A DNA stretch of 64,000 nt from Betaproteobacteria bacterium (GCA_016208425.1 JACQYA010000118.1:3350-67349), one strand, 5' to 3'. Positions 9,828 to 15,423 are shown, counted from the stretch's first letter. Notes: generated from the letters alone by a model not told the origin. Program-made: numbers and translations.

Positions 9828-10505
9828 CTATGCGGTCCCGCAACGTTCCCCGGCACGCGCTTGCAGCCGGCTTTCCATGGCACGCTTGCCGGCGAGCAGG
9901 AAACCGAGCACCGCGAAACCGCCGGGCGGCAGGATCATCAGCAGCGCGCCGCCGTAGCCCGGTATGTTCACTTCGAGAAAGGCGAAAGCCGGCCCGAGCA
10001 GGTTGGAGGCTTGCGCGAACAGCGTGCCGGCGCCGAGAAACTCGCGGATCAGGCCGATCCCGGTCAGCGCGCCGGTAAAGCCCAGGCCCATCGCCAGGCC
10101 GTCGGCCGCCGAGGCGACGACGCCGTTCTTGACGGCGAAGGCTTCGGCCCGCCCGAGGATGGCGCAGTTGACGACGATCAGCGCGATGAACAGGCCGAGC
10201 ACTTTGTAGAGATCGTGCAGCCAGGCATTCATCGCCATGTCGACGACGGTGACGAGCGTCGCGATGAGCACGACGAAGACCGGGATGCGCACCTGCGAGC
10301 TGACGGTATGGCGGATCATCGACACCAGCGCGTTGGAAACGACGAGCACCGCCGTGGTCGCCAGCCCCATGCCGAGGCCGTTGGTGCCGCTGGTCGTCAC
10401 GGCCATCGTCGGGCACATGGCGAGCAACTGCGAAAAAACCACGTTCTGCGTCCACAGCCCGTCCTTCATGATGCCGCCCAGATTGCTGCCCAGAGTCTTG
10501 CTCAT
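9828..10505 (-). CDS. rnfE: Rnf electron transport complex subunit E
   Basis: 225 aa. ...GLWTQNVVFSQLLAMCPTMAVTTSGTNGLGMGLATT... The ATG overlaps the rnfG stop (ATGA). Confidence 0.93.
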   Translation of the reverse strand: MSKTLGSNLGGIMKDGLWTQNVVFSQLLAMCPTMAVTTSGTNGLGMGLATTAVLVVSNALVSMIRHTVSSQVRIPVFVVLIATLVTVVDMAMNAWLHDLYKVLGLFIALIVVNCAILGRAEAFAVKNGVVASAADGLAMGLGFTGALTGIGLIREFLGAGTLFAQASNLLGPAFAFLEVNIPGYGGALLMILPPGGFAVLGFLLAGKRAMESRLQARAGERCGTA

Positions 10506-11125
10506 CGCCGCTCTCCCAGAATTTCCTCGCGGTGCTCGGCGTAAAACGCCAGACCGCCCTTCACCGCCTTGACCACCGCGCGCGGCGTAACAGTCGCTCC
10601 GGCAAACTGGTCGAAGACGCCGCCATCTTTCTTGACGCCCCACTTCCCGGGCGCCGGATCGCCCAGCGATTTTCCGTCGAAACCTTTGATCCAGGGCGCT
10701 TTTGCCAGCTCGACCTTGTCGCCAAGACCCGGTGTTTCCGCGTGTTTCAAGACCCGCACGCCCAATGTTTTGCCGCCGGCATCGACGGCCATCAACACCT
10801 GGATATCGGCCGCGTAGCCGCGTTCGACCCTCTTGAACACCGCCCCCTTGACCGCTCCTCCCCACCGCGCGCGGTAGACGGTCTGCGGCTTGCCGCCGCG
10901 TTCGGCGTCCGCGATTTCCAGCGTATCCCGGAGAAAATCGTTGTCGGCAAAACCTTCGGGCAACACCTCGGAGAGCTGATCGCGCAGGTCTTTGGCCTCG
11001 GCGGCGGCAATCGCCTCGCCCGTCGCGCTCGACGCCCAGGACAGCGCGCCGCTGGCGGCCAGCGCGAAGGCGCCGAGCAGGATGGGCTGGTAGCCGATTT
11101 TTTCGCGGAACGATGCGAAGTTCAT
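10502..11125 (-). CDS. rnfG: Rnf complex subunit G (FMN-binding)
   Basis: 207 aa. N-terminal TM segment and a C-terminal ..FDQFAGATVTPRAV.. FMN-attachment type motif. The ATG overlaps the rnfD stop. Confidence 0.9.
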   Translation of the reverse strand: MNFASFREKIGYQPILLGAFALAASGALSWASSATGEAIAAAEAKDLRDQLSEVLPEGFADNDFLRDTLEIADAERGGKPQTVYRARWGGAVKGAVFKRVERGYAADIQVLMAVDAGGKTLGVRVLKHAETPGLGDKVELAKAPWIKGFDGKSLGDPAPGKWGVKKDGGVFDQFAGATVTPRAVVKAVKGGLAFYAEHREEILGERR

Positions 11126-12219
11126 TGCACGCCCCCGCGCGCGACATCCAGCGCCTTGCCCTTGCGGTCGCGCCCGAGCGCGCGCGGCCTGATAAAGCGG
11201 TCGATGGCCGGCGTTAGCGCATTCATCAGCAGCACGGCAAACGCCACCCCTTCCGGGTAGCCGCCGTAACTGCGGATCACCCAGGTCAGCAGGCCGATGC
11301 CCAGGCCGAAAACGATCTGCCCGGCGGCGGTGTTCGGCGAGGTCACGTAGTCGGTGGCGATGAAGAAGGCGCCGAGCATCAGCGCGCCGGAAAGCAGGTG
11401 CGCCTGAACGCTCAGGTAGTGCGCCGGATCGGCCGCGTGGCCGATGGCCGCGGGGATCGCCACGCCGGCCAGCACGGCGAGCGGGGCATGCCAGCCGATC
11501 ACGCCGCGCGCCAGCAGGTAAAGCCCGCCGCCGAGAATCAACAGCGACGCCGGCTCGCCGAAACTGCCGGAGCGTGCGCCGATCCAGGAAACCGCCGGAG
11601 CATGCTCGCCGGCCAGCGAATGCAGCAAATCGATCCCGCGCAACATCTCGGTCTTGGAATAACCGAGCAGCGAGGCGCTGGCCATGGCGTCCGGTTGCGG
11701 CAGGCGGGTCAGGAAGATGCGCAAGCCGTCGACAAAGCCGGGGGCGGCCAGCGCCGTCAGCGGCAAGGGCGTCACCCACTGCGTGAGCGGGACGGGGAAG
11801 GAAACCAGCAGCGCGACGCGCGCCACCATCGCCGGGTTGAAGACGTTCTGCCCGAGGCCGCCGAACACCTGCTTGCCGATCACGATGGCGATGAAGCCGC
11901 CGATCGGCGCGACCCACCACGGCGCCCAGGGCGGCAGCGTCATCGCCAGCAGCCAGCCGGTGAGCGCCGCCGAGCCGTCGAGCAGGGTGGCCTTGATGCG
12001 CGTGCCGCCCGCCAGCTTCAGCGAAATTGCCTCGAAACCGAGACAGGATACTACTGTCAGCAGCCACAGGAAAAAGGAAGGCCAGCCAAACAGCCAGAAG
12101 CCATAGAGCGTCGCCGGCACCAGCGCCATCTGTACGCGAAACATGGTGCGGCCAACCGAGCTGCCGCCGTGCGCGTGTGGCGAGGCGACCGGCCGGCCGG
12201 TCGGAGCGTCTGCATTCAT
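11122..12219 (-). CDS. rnfD: Rnf complex subunit D
   Basis: 365 aa from ATG 12219 (MNADAPTG...). Polytopic NqrB/RnfD pattern (..LLDGSAALTGWLLAMTLPPWAPWW..FGGLGQNVFNPAM..). The upstream 158 codons of the track ORF are rejected. Confidence 0.9.
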   Translation of the reverse strand: MNADAPTGRPVASPHAHGGSSVGRTMFRVQMALVPATLYGFWLFGWPSFFLWLLTVVSCLGFEAISLKLAGGTRIKATLLDGSAALTGWLLAMTLPPWAPWWVAPIGGFIAIVIGKQVFGGLGQNVFNPAMVARVALLVSFPVPLTQWVTPLPLTALAAPGFVDGLRIFLTRLPQPDAMASASLLGYSKTEMLRGIDLLHSLAGEHAPAVSWIGARSGSFGEPASLLILGGGLYLLARGVIGWHAPLAVLAGVAIPAAIGHAADPAHYLSVQAHLLSGALMLGAFFIATDYVTSPNTAAGQIVFGLGIGLLTWVIRSYGGYPEGVAFAVLLMNALTPAIDRFIRPRALGRDRKGKALDVARGGVQ

Positions 12220-12334
12220 CGAAAACAAACTCCGGTTGGAAACCTCCCCATTCAGGGGGGTAATCGAACACGGGAGAGGCGCGAGCGCTTCCGTGTTGTT
12301 TCGTCCGGCTAGTCCGGACGCGGATTGAAACATG
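12215..12334 (-). repeat. 120-nt structured intercistronic element, copy 1 (rnfC/rnfD junction)
   Basis: About 94% identical to 13828..13947. Three hairpins (12243..12260, 12267..12297, 12302..12320). Supplies the GGAG SD and ATGAA start context of rnfD. The rnfC stop codon lies in the loop of the third hairpin. Confidence 0.85.
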
Positions 12335-13832
12335 CGGGTTCTCCCTGTTTTCCGGCGGCCGCCGCGCGCCCGGCCTTGCGCCTGGCGGCGGCTTCGGCTT
12401 TTTCGCGCGCTTCGCGCTCGACCCGTTCCTGGCGCTGGCGCGCCATTTTCTTCGTCGCTTCCGCGCGCAGCCTGTCTCTTTCCTGTCCGGCCAGCTCGCC
12501 TTTGGCATGCGCGAAATACTGTACCAGCGGAATGTGCGAGGGGCACACGTAGGCGCAGCAACCGCAAGCGATGCAGTCTTTCAACCCGAAGGGGATGGCC
12601 TCGGCGAACGCCCCGTTCCGTATCCGCGCGCTCATTTCGAGCGGCAGCAAACCCATCGGGCAGGCCTTGACGCAACTGCCGCAGCGGATACACGGCGCCG
12701 TTTCCCGCCCGGCGATCCCATCTACTTCCGTCGCGTCGAGCGCCAGAATGCCGCTCGTCCCCTTCACCACCGGCACCCGCCAGTGCGGGATCTGCACGCC
12801 CATCATCGGCCCGCCGATGACCCGGCGCGCCAGACCCAGGCCGTCGCCCTTCAGGCCCCCGGCAAACGCGATCACTTCCTCGGCCAGCGTGCCGATGCGC
12901 ACCTCGATATTGCCGGGCCGGTTCGCGCAGCGGCCGTTGACCGTGAGCAGGCGCGAGATCAGCGGTTTGCCTTCACGCACGGCGGCGCGCACGGCAAGCG
13001 CCGTGCCGACGTTGTGCACGATCACGCCGATATCTGCGGGACGGCCGTCGGCCGGTACTTCGATGCCGGTGAGCACCTGGATCAACTGCTTCTCGGAACC
13101 CATCGGGTAACGCGCCGGCACCGCGTGTATCCGCACCGCCCCGATGCCGGCCACGGCGGCGCGCATCGCCGCGATCGCTTCCGGCTTGTTGTCCTCGATG
13201 CCGACCAGCGCCCGCCCCGCCCCGGTCGCGCGCAGCATCAGGCGGATGCCGTCGACGATGGCGGGCGCGCTATCGCGCATCAGGCGGTCGTCGCAGGACA
13301 GATACGGCTCGCACTCGCCGCCGTTGATGACCAGGGCCGCGACCCTGGCGCGCGCCGCGCCGACCAGCTTGACCGCCGAAGGGAAGGCCGCGCCGCCCAG
13401 CCCGACCACGCCGGCCGCCGCCACCCGCCGGCCGATTTCGGCGGCGCTCAAGGCGAAGGGGGCGTCGCAGCCCCGCAGTTCCGTCCACTCGTCCAGACCA
13501 TCGGCTTCGAGGATGATCGCCGGCAGGGTGAGCCCGGACGGATGCGGCGCCGCGACCTCGGTGACCGCGACCACGACCCCGGAAGTCGGTGCGTGGACGG
13601 GCGCCGAAACCGCGCCCTGCGCTTCGGCCAGCAGTTCGCCCTTGCGCACCTTCTGGCCGACCAGCACCACCGGGCGCGCCGGCCCGCCCAGATGCTGCTG
13701 CAACGGCAGATAGAGCCGCGCCGACACCGGCATCGCGCGTACCGGCGCATCGGCCGCCGGACGTTTGTGGTCGGCCGGGTGCACGCCCCAGCCGATGCCC
13801 TTGAGGCGCCGGAAAAGCTTCATAAATTTCAT
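12309..13832 (-). CDS. rnfC: Rnf complex subunit C (NADH-binding, 2x[4Fe-4S])
   Basis: 507 aa from ATG 13832 (MKFMKLFRRLKG...). CIRCGSCVKACP and CIACGCCAYVCP ferredoxin motifs, with a Lys/Arg/Glu-rich C-terminal tail. Confidence 0.92.
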   Translation of the reverse strand: MKFMKLFRRLKGIGWGVHPADHKRPAADAPVRAMPVSARLYLPLQQHLGGPARPVVLVGQKVRKGELLAEAQGAVSAPVHAPTSGVVVAVTEVAAPHPSGLTLPAIILEADGLDEWTELRGCDAPFALSAAEIGRRVAAAGVVGLGGAAFPSAVKLVGAARARVAALVINGGECEPYLSCDDRLMRDSAPAIVDGIRLMLRATGAGRALVGIEDNKPEAIAAMRAAVAGIGAVRIHAVPARYPMGSEKQLIQVLTGIEVPADGRPADIGVIVHNVGTALAVRAAVREGKPLISRLLTVNGRCANRPGNIEVRIGTLAEEVIAFAGGLKGDGLGLARRVIGGPMMGVQIPHWRVPVVKGTSGILALDATEVDGIAGRETAPCIRCGSCVKACPMGLLPLEMSARIRNGAFAEAIPFGLKDCIACGCCAYVCPSHIPLVQYFAHAKGELAGQERDRLRAEATKKMARQRQERVEREAREKAEAAARRKAGRAAAAGKQGEPACFNPRPD

Positions 13833-13947
13833 CGGAAACAAACTCCGGTTAGAAACCTCCCCCTTCAGGGGGATAATCGAACACGGGAGAGGCGCGAGCG
13901 CTTCCGTGTTGTTTCGCCCGGCGAGTCCGGGCGCGGATTGAAACATG
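13828..13947 (-). repeat. 120-nt structured intercistronic element, copy 2 (rnfB/rnfC junction)
   Basis: Same element as 12215..12334. Hairpin 13915..13933 carries the compensatory pair change (C-G here, U-A in copy 1). Confidence 0.85.
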
Positions 13948-13962
13948 TCGGTTTCACCGATC

Positions 13963-14490
13963 TCACGCGGCTAAAGGTTTGGGCATCACCCAGTGTTGCA
14001 GGGTGACCGGCACCGGCCGCATGACCAGCGCCCCGGTCGGACATTTTTCGACACAGCTCGCGCAGCCGGTGCACGCCTCGCGCAGCACGTCGTGTATCTG
14101 CCTGGCGGCGCCGAGAATGGCGTCGGTCGGGCAGACCTTGCCGCAGCGGCAACAGCCTATGCACAGCTCCTCGGCCACGGTGGCAATCTTCGGGCCTTCG
14201 CCGGAAAGGCCGGAGAGGTCGACCGCAACGCCCAGCTTGGCGGCTAGCTGGGCGGCCAGCGTTTTGCCGCCCGCCGGGCAGCAGGCCGGAGACGCGGTAC
14301 CGTCGGCGATGGCCGCCGCCGCGCCGGAACACCCGGGGAAACCGCATTGCCCGCAGTTGGAGCCGGGCATCATTTCGATCAGCTCGCCGGCCAGCGCGCT
14401 GCTTTCGACGTGCAAGAACTTGTTGGCGACGCCCAGAACGGCGCCGAGCACGGCGCCGAGCAGGGTCAGGCTGAGGATGGCGGCGATCAT
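13963..14490 (-). CDS. rnfB: Rnf complex subunit B (Fe-S)
   Basis: 175 aa from ATG 14490. N-terminal TM helix, then the NCGQCGFPGCSG cluster and two 4Fe-4S motifs (CIGCCRCGKVCP, CTGCASCVEKCP). Confidence 0.92.
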   Translation of the reverse strand: MIAAILSLTLLGAVLGAVLGVANKFLHVESSALAGELIEMMPGSNCGQCGFPGCSGAAAAIADGTASPACCPAGGKTLAAQLAAKLGVAVDLSGLSGEGPKIATVAEELCIGCCRCGKVCPTDAILGAARQIHDVLREACTGCASCVEKCPTGALVMRPVPVTLQHWVMPKPLAA

Positions 14491-14501: not shown

Positions 14502-15080
14502 CTATACGTTGAGGCCGGAGAAGCCCATAAAAGACAGGGCCAACAGGCTGATGGCGATAAACGCGACCGGCGCGCCGGCGAAGGCGGCCGGCACGCGCGC
14601 CAGCGCCACGCGCTCGCGCAGGCCGGCAAAAATGAGCAGCACCACGGCGAAGCCGAGCGCCGATCCGAAGCCGTAAAGCAGGCTCTTGAACAGGCTGAAC
14701 TTTTGCTCGACGTTGATCAGCGCGACGCCGAGCACCGCGCAGTTGGTGGTAATCAGCGGCAGGTAGATGCCCAGCGACCCGTAGAGGCCGGGGCTGGCCT
14801 TTTTGACGAACATTTCGGTGAATTGCACGACGGCGGCGATGACCAGGATGAAGGTCAGGATGCGCAGATAGCCGAGCCCGAGCGGCGCCAGCAGCCAGTT
14901 GTCGAGCATCCACGAGGCGCCGGCGGCGAGCGTGATGACGAAAGTGGTCGCCATCCCCATGCCCAGGGCGCTGTCGATGCTTTTCGATACACCCATCACC
15001 GGGCAGAGGCCGAGGAACTTGATGAGCACCACGTTGTTGACCAGCGCGGTGGAAAGTAGAAGCAGGATGAATTCGCTCAT
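14502..15080 (-). CDS. rnfA: Rnf complex subunit A
   Basis: 192 aa from ATG 15080 ([32 protein letters not shown]...), the typical RnfA/NqrE family. Confidence 0.93.
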
Positions 15081-15116
15081 GGCGGTAATGTCGGGAGGGG
15101 TACGGTCACCCTTACT

Positions 15117-15131
15117 GCACGAGCCGTGCCA
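15117..15131 (-). promoter_or_regulatory. sigma54 -24/-12 promoter for rnfABCDGEH
   Basis: Minus strand reads TGGCAC-GGCTC-GTGC, 37 nt upstream of the rnfA ATG. Same -12 variant (GTGC) as the nifH promoter. Confidence 0.8.
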
Positions 15132-15215
15132 GCTCGGGGAGCGCGGCGAAATGCCCGTACCCGCGAGCGCTTCGCGGCATGCGCACCAGACCGGGGCGAA
15201 ACCCGGGCCGGAAAA

Positions 15216-15231: not shown

Positions 15232-15309
15232 GACAAATCGTCGGGTTTGCCTCCCGTATCCGGCGGCAAACGGCTTATTCCAATTCGCGTTAGAAACAGG
15301 AATCATGTG

Positions 15310-15358
15310 GGAGCGGCCTTGGCCGCGATGGGCGCCGTATCGCGGCCAAGGCCGCTCC
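15310..15358. repeat. REP-type perfect palindrome (20-bp arms)
   Basis: GGAGCGGCCTTGGCCGCGAT - 9 nt loop - ATCGCGGCCAAGGCCGCTCC, in the divergent rnfA/nifL intergenic region. Confidence 0.8.
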
Positions 15359-15423
15359 TACAAAGCGCAACGGTTATTCGCATTTGTATTGCGAATCGGA
15401 ATTACAGGCGGCTTGTCGCGCAA

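Follow-up and report, generated by a model that had tools for sequence, protein, structure and literature searches.

A dispersed, non-coding and probably mobile repeat at two start codons of a betaproteobacterial rnf operon carries a solitary CRISPR-like repeat at one end

The DNA considered here is a stretch of 64,000 nucleotides of a Betaproteobacteria bacterium (GCA_016208425.1 JACQYA010000118.1:3350-67349), referred to as the window in the following, which contains an rnf operon with all genes on the minus strand, as assigned by NCBIfam, followed downstream by nifE and bordered on the upstream side by a divergent open reading frame (ORF) of the PAS/histidine-kinase type. Two copies of a structured element of about 115 nt interrupt this operon, one at the rnfC/rnfD junction (12215-12334, copy 1) and one at the rnfB/rnfC junction (13828-13947, copy 2), both co-oriented with the operon. 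The direct repeat extends over 126 nt (12215-12340 and 13828-13953, 93% identity), its two members find each other within the window by blastn with E = 3e-50, and no further copy is present in the 64 kb by blastn or by the covariance model described below. The original prediction, made from the sequence alone, had described a 120-nt duplicate with seven differences, lying at these two junctions in the orientation of the operon; exactly seven differences are counted within the 120 nt, and the placement of the genes by NCBIfam agrees with the positions. The evidence presented here indicates that both copies probably belong to a dispersed, non-coding mobile repeat, similar to miniature inverted-repeat transposable elements (MITEs) and to palindrome-associated transposable elements (PATEs), which is tolerated at start codons.

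The features of the locus are collected in table 1. Mechanical ORF calling assigns 545 residues to RnfC (12309-13946) and 403 to RnfD (11122-12333), both on the minus strand and with a common N-terminus (MFQSA...). The RsxC/RnfC profile match of NCBIfam starts near residue 46 of the long rnfC ORF, and the second ATG of rnfD is equivalent to the ATG used by the gene call of L001, the closest relative among the loci fetched for comparison (numbered with the prefix L). The rnfB gene of the window matches, in length and position, gene calls with FeS/Fer4 domains in L001, L002 and L143, and is 94.7% identical in nucleotide sequence to that of L001; an exact-protein look-up of the window RnfB returned no identical protein on record.

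Table 1. Features of the two element copies and of the rnf genes in the window (positions counted from its first nucleotide).
Feature	Position	Strand	Description
Element copy 1	12220-12333	minus	114 nt, ATGTTTCAATCC...GTTTTCG; inserted at rnfD start codon; covariance model 128.7 bits
Element copy 2	13833-13946	minus	114 nt; inserted at rnfC start codon; covariance model 130.4 bits
ATGAA target/flank and rnfD start codon	12215-12219	minus	TTCAT on plus strand; same pentamer in empty sites
ATGAA target/flank and rnfC start codon	13828-13832	minus	same pentamer in empty site
Hairpin 2, copy 1	12267-12297	minus	AACACGG...CCGTGTT, inner stem degenerate; centroid fold
Hairpin 2, copy 2	13880-13910	minus	centroid fold, family covariation, inverted-repeat search
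Hairpin 3, copy 1	12245-12260	minus	CCCC-CTGAAT-GGGG; centroid fold, family covariation
Hairpin 3, copy 2	13858-13873	minus	TCCCCC-TGAA-GGGGGA; centroid fold, family covariation
GGAG Shine-Dalgarno-like motif, copy 1	12230-12233	minus	element-supplied; 10 nt upstream of rnfD ATG; read from sequence
GGAG Shine-Dalgarno-like motif, copy 2	13843-13846	minus	element-supplied; 10 nt upstream of rnfC ATG
Solitary type I-C-like CRISPR repeat, copy 1	12298-12331	plus	GTTTCGTCCGGCTAGTCCGGACGCGGATTGAAAC; hairpin 1 read on opposite strand
Solitary type I-C-like CRISPR repeat, copy 2	13911-13944	plus	GTTTCGCCCGGCGAGTCCGGGCGCGGATTGAAAC
Sigma-70-like antisense promoter, copy 2	13850-13877	plus	TAGAAA-16-GATAAT; predicted
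Weaker antisense promoter-like site, copy 1	12236-12264	plus	TTGGAA-17-GGTAAT, 8/12 matches
rnfC stop codon TAG	12309-12311	minus	inside hairpin 1 loop of copy 1
rnfA	14502-15080	minus	
rnfB	13963-14490	minus	175 aa; stop codon 16 nt upstream of copy 2
rnfC	12309-13832	minus	507 aa from second ATG; NCBIfam RsxC/RnfC
rnfD	11122-12219	minus	365 aa from second ATG; NCBIfam rnfD
rnfG	10502-11125	minus	

The comparison with related rnf loci establishes that the element is an insertion, and not a conserved feature of rnf operons. In L001 (assembly GCA_974483865.1), the RnfC of which is 97% identical to that of the window, the rnfB/rnfC junction is uninterrupted, i.e. empty (..GACATGAAATT.. / ..AAACCGACATGAAATTTATG.. 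/ ..GAAACCGACATGAAATTTATG..), and the rnfC/rnfD junction holds an orthologous element of 113 nt. In more distant relatives belonging to three lineages (11 contigs fetched; L002-L005 and L143-L148, RnfC 82-84% identical), both junctions are devoid of the element, with no match of the covariance model in those loci; there, rnfB and rnfC are separated by a gap of 7-13 nt, and rnfC and rnfD overlap as ATGA. Thus, the conserved position at rnf orthologues across species that marks a cis-regulatory leader or an intercistronic RNA is not found. At both junctions, the alignment of filled and empty sites delimits a 114-nt block (ATGTTTCAATCC...GTTTYCG) lying directly 5' to an ATGAA that already existed as the start codon of the downstream gene, and both comparisons are compatible with zero target duplication. 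The CCGGAGTTTGTTTYCG-ATGAA tail seen in the sequence agrees with the ending common to both copies that had been reported, CCGGAGTTTGTTT(T/C)CG-ATGAA. The insertion at rnfD disrupted the ancestral ATGA stop/start overlap (as seen in L002 and L143); copy 1 now holds the final eight codons and the stop codon of rnfC, the product of which is extended by seven element-encoded residues (CFNPRPD) and terminates in the loop of hairpin 1, where the stop codon had already been noticed.

An unrelated insertion of 83 nt is found exactly on the rnfB start codon in L143 (2377-2462; also in L144 and L145, metagenome-assembled genomes, MAGs, of Azonexus sp.), with the sequence ..GGGAGAAACCATG[ACGACC...GGGAGGCTTGACATG]ATCGCC..., ATG at both junctions, its own GGGAGG Shine-Dalgarno motif and GC-rich hairpins. 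The same site is uninterrupted in the window, in L001 and in L146, so that a second, different small element occupies the same start-codon niche, in the same operon of another lineage.

The element described here is by no means restricted to rnf genes. A genome scan with a 22-nt pattern from its 3' end retrieved 12 loci in MAGs of Accumulibacter, Azonexus, Zoogloeaceae, Comamonas, Hydrogenophaga and Thiomonas, and more copies came from a pattern scan of metagenomes (at least four new element-bearing loci, the matches being mostly true CRISPR arrays) and, through peptide searches, from contigs with short spurious ORFs that translate the element. A covariance model derived from 20 copies recognizes 24 distinct full-length ones, with scores of 93-141 bits; the element occurs in Rhodocyclales and Burkholderiales, in at least six genera. 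One copy occupies the start codon of fliH (Pfam), between fliG and fliH, one is upstream of pntA, another is beside the start of an smc gene on the opposite strand, and others precede ORFs with TldD-like, PlsY-like, chemoreceptor-like or Gfo/Idh-like N-termini, as read from translations and not from a family search. At least 12 of 23 copies are placed precisely at the start codon of a sizeable ORF of the same orientation, and a few have no gene downstream. No copy was found in a plasmid collection (blastn, distant mode) or in viral contigs (pattern scan), and the literature searched by keywords and literal sequence strings yielded no prior description of the element. The dispersed copies contradict an explanation by duplication or gene conversion confined to the rnf operon, without mobility. 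Such an event would account for a hairpin-2 loop variant common to the two window copies only, but not for 22 further copies at unrelated loci in other genera, nor for the precise ATGAA boundaries of both insertions against the empty sites, and is considered extremely improbable.

Both window copies, being 114 nt long, are in frame and free of stop codons, with the ancestral Shine-Dalgarno motif and ATG retained upstream, and could be taken for a coding module that adds a 38-residue N-terminal extension (MFQSA...) to RnfC and RnfD, like the in-frame Rickettsia palindromic elements (RPEs). This reading was rejected on the basis of length, frame, homologue and peptide searches, and there is scarcely any likelihood left to it. 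Across the family, the distance from the 5' ATG to the 3' ATG varies between 109 and 125 nt, and nine of the 14 measured copies are out of frame, as is the 113-nt orthologue of L001; it follows that the element is non-coding, and that being in frame, as the window copies are, is not a family trait. Furthermore, RnfC homologues are all of about 500-518 residues and none carries the extension, the peptide search returned only hypothetical ORFs of 34-60 residues, and no fusion of the element peptide to a larger protein exists among 5.8 billion clusters. A recount of the seven differences between the window copies gives the same split as before, four nonsynonymous and three synonymous, in the MFQSA frame, which the original prediction had rightly taken to be artefactual. 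Since both insertions are in frame, gene callers that choose the longest ORF would mis-annotate RnfC and RnfD, and the ORFs of 545 and 403 residues are probably artefacts of this kind.

In the family alignment, the 5' end, (ATG)TTTCAATCC, and the 3' tail, CCGGAGTTTGTTTTCGATG / GGTTTCNAACCGGAGTTTGTTTTCGATGAA, are nearly invariant, the conservation of the 3' tail, though not that of the 5' end, being partly due to how the first 12 copies were found. On the plus strand, the left end consists of CGAAAACAAACTCCGGTTGGAAACC followed by hairpin 3, at 25 nt from the boundary, and the right end of hairpin 1 followed by GGATTGAAACAT, at 13 nt from the boundary (an 11-nt handle plus AT). Terminal inverted repeats are absent, the only inverted repeat reported at a minimum length of 8 nt being the internal hairpin 2; if anything, the ends form a weak direct repeat (GTTTCAATCC and GTTTCCAACC). 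Of 23 copies, 16 have ATGAA (TTCAT on the other strand) as their right flank and the rest have near variants of it, and the left flank is unconserved beyond ATG. In 18 of the 23 copies ATG is found at both junctions, which is equally explained by an element beginning with ATG that inserts before ATGAA.

Each copy had been predicted to fold into three hairpins. The single-sequence folds of the window copies are no better than those of shuffled sequences (z about -1.2), and the support for the three hairpins comes instead from covariation across the whole family. In a structure-blind MAFFT alignment, 89% of the hairpin cells are paired, as compared with 41-57% when partners are slid, nine of 20 hairpin pairs show changes on both sides (in hairpin 2, five of the seven outer and two of the four inner pairs), and none of 500 shuffles reaches the observed covariation. 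The scattering over many unrelated loci that had been foreseen for a plain repeat without conserved structure is indeed observed, but together with a conserved, covarying structure. A hand tally of the wobble cells in the pair table gives 18 G-U on the sense strand and 15 A-C, equivalent to G-U on the antisense strand; given this balance, covariation cannot tell which strand, or whether DNA or RNA, is selected, and in a mobile family it may reflect the requirements of movement. The hairpins would appear to be features of the family rather than adaptations to rnf.

The orthologous elements at the rnfC/rnfD junction allow the rate of change to be compared with that of the surrounding genes. Divergence between the window and L001 at fourfold-degenerate sites of rnfB, rnfC and rnfD is 4.7-5.9%, and 10 of 114 positions (8.8%) differ between the two elements, all of these changes being confined to the central 70 nt, with the first 15 and the last 30 nt unchanged. 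As the divergence of the element is at least that of the fourfold sites, its interior is not under purifying selection at this locus, and its ends may be. In L001, hairpin 2 has undergone two uncompensated stem changes and hairpin 3 has lost one loop base. In hairpin 1 of the window copies, CG(T/C)CCGG-loop-CCGG(A/G)CG, the paired difference described earlier, T-A versus C-G, is present; the T-A pair arose in place in copy 1, given that L001 and the family carry C-G, and it makes up two of the four changes unique to copy 1, for which chance is below 1% by a rough estimate. This paired change is compatible with either selection on the hairpin or hairpin-templated mutation. As for the relation between the window copies, they alone in the family alignment carry the hairpin-2 loop variant AGCGCTCGCGCC, so that either copy 2 derives from copy 1 or the two have exchanged sequence; overall, copy 2 is about equally close to copy 1 (92.9% identity) and to a Thiomonas copy (92.5%). 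Copy 1 would be older than the split from the closest relative, and copy 2 would have appeared subsequently in this lineage, either as a derivative of copy 1 or accompanied by gene conversion of the two copies.

These data bear on the first of the two functions offered in the original prediction, namely that of an rnf-dedicated intercistronic RNA module setting the processing, stability or translation ratios of RnfB, RnfC and RnfD. The presence of co-oriented copies in two junctions of one operon, the GGAG-N10-ATG supplied by the element and the single compensatory change that arose in place in hairpin 1 speak for such a module. However, the junctions are empty in the other rnf relatives fetched, including rnfB/rnfC of L001, the same element stands upstream of unrelated genes in other genera, the orthologous copy of L001 tolerates uncompensated stem changes and a 1-nt loop deletion, and the interior evolves at the synonymous-site rate or faster, which makes this explanation very unlikely. 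The second proposal, a small mobile structured repeat that carries a ribosome-binding site, is the one borne out by the empty sites, the dispersed copies and the GGAG-N10-ATG arrangement. A terminator function on the sense strand was also considered and rejected, no terminator-like site being found on the minus strand within the elements.

The two copies are thus best described as members of a MITE/PATE-like repeat with two unusual traits, i.e. insertion at start codons and the presence, at one terminus, of a solitary type I-C CRISPR repeat with an outward promoter-like site. The lack of terminal inverted repeats and of a clear target duplication, the hairpins at the ends and the one-sided TTCAT make the element resemble those of the IS200/IS605 type, and it could be moved in trans by a hairpin-recognizing, single-strand DNA transposase of this type, inserting 3' of TTCAT. 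Since the end of the element regenerates GGAG-N10-ATG, the downstream gene would remain translatable after an insertion at its start codon, and insertions inside genes would be purged by purifying selection. A target preference for ATGAA combined with such purifying selection would then result in the enrichment at start codons, also within tight operons (rnfB/C, rnfC/D and fliG/H). In the rnf operon, the elements would be carried passively in the polycistronic mRNA, their own ribosome-binding site replacing the ancestral stop/start coupling. The element explains the two odd gaps in this nif-linked rnf operon; it is a small repeat that repeatedly lands exactly on start codons and would survive even in translationally coupled operons by bringing GGAG-N10-ATG along; no description of a repeat with this behaviour was found in the literature searched.

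With respect to known classes of small elements, the repeat shares with PATEs the lack of terminal inverted repeats and of a clear target duplication, the hairpins near both ends and a defined pentanucleotide, TTCAT, which is found on a single side and 3' of which the element is inserted. More generally, like the PATEs and MITE-like elements of IS200/IS605, it is small, non-coding, dispersed, polymorphic between close relatives and provided with hairpins near its ends, but it is set apart from them by its ends, one of which carries a ribosome-binding site and start codon and the opposite one a CRISPR-like repeat. Classical MITEs are also small and non-coding, with multiple dispersed copies and polymorphic presence; their terminal inverted repeats are missing here. 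Repetitive extragenic palindromes (REPs) and bacterial interspersed mosaic elements (BIMEs) consist of palindromic units, 20-40 nt long and headed by a conserved GTAG, have a high copy number and lie mostly downstream of genes, whereas the present unit is of 115 nt, has three different hairpins, lacks the GTAG head and is found at the 5' ends of genes. The ERIC, Correia and RPE repeats are comparable in being structured, about 100-150 nt long, located in transcribed junctions, sometimes in frame and tolerated in operons. Their sequences are unrelated, each family being either an imperfect palindrome or bounded by terminal inverted repeats with TA duplications; none of these families is known to target start codons or to carry a CRISPR repeat.

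Several observations weigh against the interpretation as a MITE/PATE-like mobile repeat. The left ATG is missing in four copies, and the boundaries are such that the target duplication could be none, AT or ATG. No transposase or autonomous partner with matching ends was noticed in about 278 kb of element-bearing DNA, in which no systematic search was made. Only two copies are present in the 64-kb window, three in one contig of 12.7 kb, and three exact matches to the 22-mer in each of two MAGs. The in-frame window copies with the ancestral Shine-Dalgarno motif and ATG make N-terminally extended RnfC and RnfD possible, and the paired T-A/C-G change that arose in place hints at constraint at the resident locus, or at hairpin-templated mutation.

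Other repeats were met in the course of the analysis. A sister family (L013:2030-2145 and L138:10199-10288) has in common with the element the TTCAT end, hairpin 3 and the GGTTTCNARCCGGAGTNNGTTT tail, and carries at its other end different long hairpins (GGTCGAAACCCCGGCC...GGCCGGGGTTTCGACC and GGGGAGGGG...CCCCTCCCC), with neither a CRISPR-DR match nor a -10 box. In L044 (5294-5566, minus strand), a copy of the element is broken in the hairpin-3 loop by an insert of about 160 nt, which, on the basis of its 15-bp terminal inverted repeats (CAGGATGCTCAAAAA...TTTTTGAGCATCCTG) and the CTAA duplication, is a classical MITE nested in the element. The left flanks of two copies (L007:3100-3127, GACGGAGTTTCAATG; L011:2828-2855, CCGGGAGTTTAAATG) resemble degenerate 3' tails of the same element, which suggests, from the sequence, repeated or nested insertion at a site that the element itself recreates.

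The CRISPR-like nature of one end becomes apparent on the strand opposite to that of the operon. The reverse complement of hairpin 1 and of the 5' end is matched by the Rfam family CRISPR-DR9 (RF01322) over the full length of the model, with 33.2 bits for copy 2 (E = 3.6e-5, positions 1-37 of 37), 27.8 bits for copy 1 (E = 0.0015) and about 29-34.3 bits for six other copies, all of these scores being below the gathering score of 45 and, therefore, insufficient for membership of the family. Hence, the earlier remark that no named RNA family was recognized remains true of the entire element, which in the window has no Rfam match at the gathering score, but this full-length, sub-gathering match on the opposite strand had been missed. 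The stem is followed by a handle of exactly 11 nt, (C/T)GGATTGAAAC, invariant in 20 aligned copies, and a repeat-like hairpin with a conserved 11-nt handle is the arrangement of solitary repeats giving rise to CRISPR RNA (crRNA)-like RNAs (crlRNAs). In copy 1, the end of the repeat is 2 nt from the boundary of the element.

A pattern derived from the CRISPR-like segment retrieved at least 74 true CRISPR arrays, in which the repeat is of 32 or 37 nt and the period of 66-72 nt, all in other loci. Three arrays with flanking DNA adjoin a cas3-cas5c-cas8c-cas7-cas4-cas1c operon, i.e. type I-C, the closest named relatives of Cas1c being those of Thiobacillaceae, Hydrogenophilales, Herminiimonas and Halothiobacillus. 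The repeat of the element (31-34 nt) is like those of type I-C in its GC-rich hairpin and in the 11 nt ending in GGATTGAAAC, and the 17 nt after its loop are identical to those of the real cas-adjacent arrays; it differs from them in being solitary, without spacers or nearby cas genes and enclosed in a dispersed element of about 115 nt, and in having a shorter loop and a different 5' end (GTTTCG). The window contains no CRISPR array, each element bearing one repeat, and tblastn with the Cas3, Cas5c, Cas8c, Cas7, Cas4 and Cas1c proteins of L029 gave no match in the window or in 22 other element-bearing loci (278 kb in all). The non-repeat part of the element has no blastn match in any of the 74 array loci fetched, spacers included, and its being a CRISPR leader or a spacer target was rejected on this ground. 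Also dropped were an integron attC site, a casposon and off-target integration by Cas1-Cas2, the empty sites having no repeat-like sequence and the duplication extending no further than ATG. Solitary or two-copy type I-C-like repeats outside the element family are found at L136:278-377 and L049:312-404, comprising the repeat portion only and having low covariance-model scores; they indicate that metagenomes also contain stray type I-C repeat units that are not part of any array.

Read along the plus strand, the element is ordered as flank-TTC-AT, CGAAAACAAACTCCGG, TTGGAA (as -35 box), 16-17 nt that include hairpin 3, GATAAT (as -10 box), hairpin 2', GTTTCG, hairpin 1', (C/T)GGATTGAAAC and AT-flank, the primes denoting the opposite strand. 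Of 25 full-length rows, 23 contain the promoter-like pair, TTG(G/A)AA-N16/17-GATAAT, matching at 8-10 of 12 positions, and at the antisense site of copy 2 a promoter scan found one such site against 0.1 expected; this site straddles hairpin 3 and is directed at the CRISPR-like repeat and out of the element. In empty sites, AT and the flank are preceded by TTC, and in the occupied site by the repeat end, AAC.

Type I-C solitary repeat units, as shown in a 2024 preprint, offer a close parallel, in that Cas5c cuts directly 3' of a single repeat-like hairpin and the resulting RNAs, of 48-50 nt with an 11-nt handle, are loaded on Cascade and act at 5'-TTC-3' protospacer adjacent motifs (PAMs) (10.1101/2024.12.27.630466). 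The element has in common with these crlRNA units (of the CreR/CreA type) the single repeat-like hairpin and the 11-nt handle followed by non-repeat sequence. Those units, however, lie in or beside cas operons, with a fixed pseudo-spacer that partly matches a nearby promoter at a TTC/TTA PAM (10.1101/2024.12.27.630466), whereas the repeat of the element is dispersed and far from cas genes, and the sequence that follows it, which would serve as 'spacer', is the variable flank of the insertion.

This arrangement raises a tentative and rather unlikely extension of the explanation given above, to be added to it and not to replace it, in which a selfish, non-autonomous element, having acquired a solitary type I-C repeat together with an outward promoter, exploits the type I-C CRISPR system of its host. 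The antisense promoter would transcribe hairpin 2', the repeat and then the flank; Cas5c would cut 3' of the hairpin, leaving the 11-nt handle (C/U)GGAUUGAAAC; and the spacer of the crRNA-like RNA would be AU plus the flank. As this spacer sequence is preceded in the occupied site by AAC, which is not a PAM, and in the empty site by TTC, which is the I-C PAM, Cascade-Cas3 would attack only alleles or sister chromosomes without the element, and this attack would enforce its retention or drive homing, in a manner similar to the guide RNAs of TnpB and IscB in IS200/IS605 elements. Only in the empty site does TTC lie next to the flank, which suggests, on sequence grounds, a possible guide-RNA-based protection of the element.

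In favour of this extension are the full-length antisense CRISPR-DR9 match in every copy tested (27.8-34.3 bits), the invariance of GGATTGAAAC at a distance of exactly 11 nt from the hairpin base to the repeat end, the finding of true arrays, identical to the element in their repeat ends, next to cas operons of type I-C, the outward promoter-like site conserved in nearly all full-length rows, the TTC-AT-flank reading of empty sites and the activity, at TTC PAMs, of Cascade-loaded RNAs from single-repeat units (10.1101/2024.12.27.630466). Moreover, type I-C systems are found in related taxa, including six of 43 Accumulibacter genomes (10.1101/2022.10.12.504627), Thiobacillaceae, Hydrogenophilales and Herminiimonas, and the subfamily of the element with a short hairpin and A in the handle corresponds to the 32-nt repeats, that with a longer hairpin and G to the 37-nt repeats. 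On the other hand, no cas genes lie in the 278 kb of element-bearing loci, ATGAA is expected also from the start-codon context, which is a simpler explanation, and the Rfam scores are below the gathering score. In addition, the sister family, which shares the TTCAT end and hairpin 3, lacks a -10 box and carries a hairpin that is not of the CRISPR type, the non-repeat part of the element is unmatched in the CRISPR-array loci fetched, spacers included, and an antisense promoter inside operons would face oncoming transcription.

In TnpB and IscB systems, the omega-RNA (reRNA) provides a structured scaffold at the end of the transposon, transcription proceeds outward so that the flank becomes the guide, and the target motif of the transposon doubles as the nuclease adjacent motif, only the empty site being cut. 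By analogy, the element would combine a scaffold at its end with an outward promoter-like site and a target motif, but it encodes neither TnpB nor IscB, and has no match to the omega-RNA families of Rfam; its scaffold would be a class 1 (type I-C) repeat and the Cascade would be borrowed from the host. Were this so, it would represent a class 1 CRISPR-based retention or homing of a transposon that borrows host immunity, analogous to the omega-RNAs of TnpB and IscB. Were the guide model false, the element might nevertheless give rise to stray crRNA-like transcripts and to false CRISPR predictions.

Two minor features lie upstream of the rnf genes in the window. At 15116-15132 on the minus strand, about 40 nt upstream of rnfA, the sequence CTGGCACGGCTCGTGCA fits the sigma-54 -24/-12 consensus (TGGCAC-N5-TTGCA), and is consistent with a candidate NifA-dependent promoter for the whole rnf operon, in which case a single polycistronic mRNA would contain both elements. 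At 15306-15362, in the intergenic region that separates rnfA from the divergent PAS/histidine-kinase (nifL-like) ORF, lies a 24-bp inverted repeat with 96% complementarity and a 9-nt spacer (TGTGGGAGCGGCCTTGGCCGCGAT / ATCGCGGCCAAGGCCGCTCCTACA).

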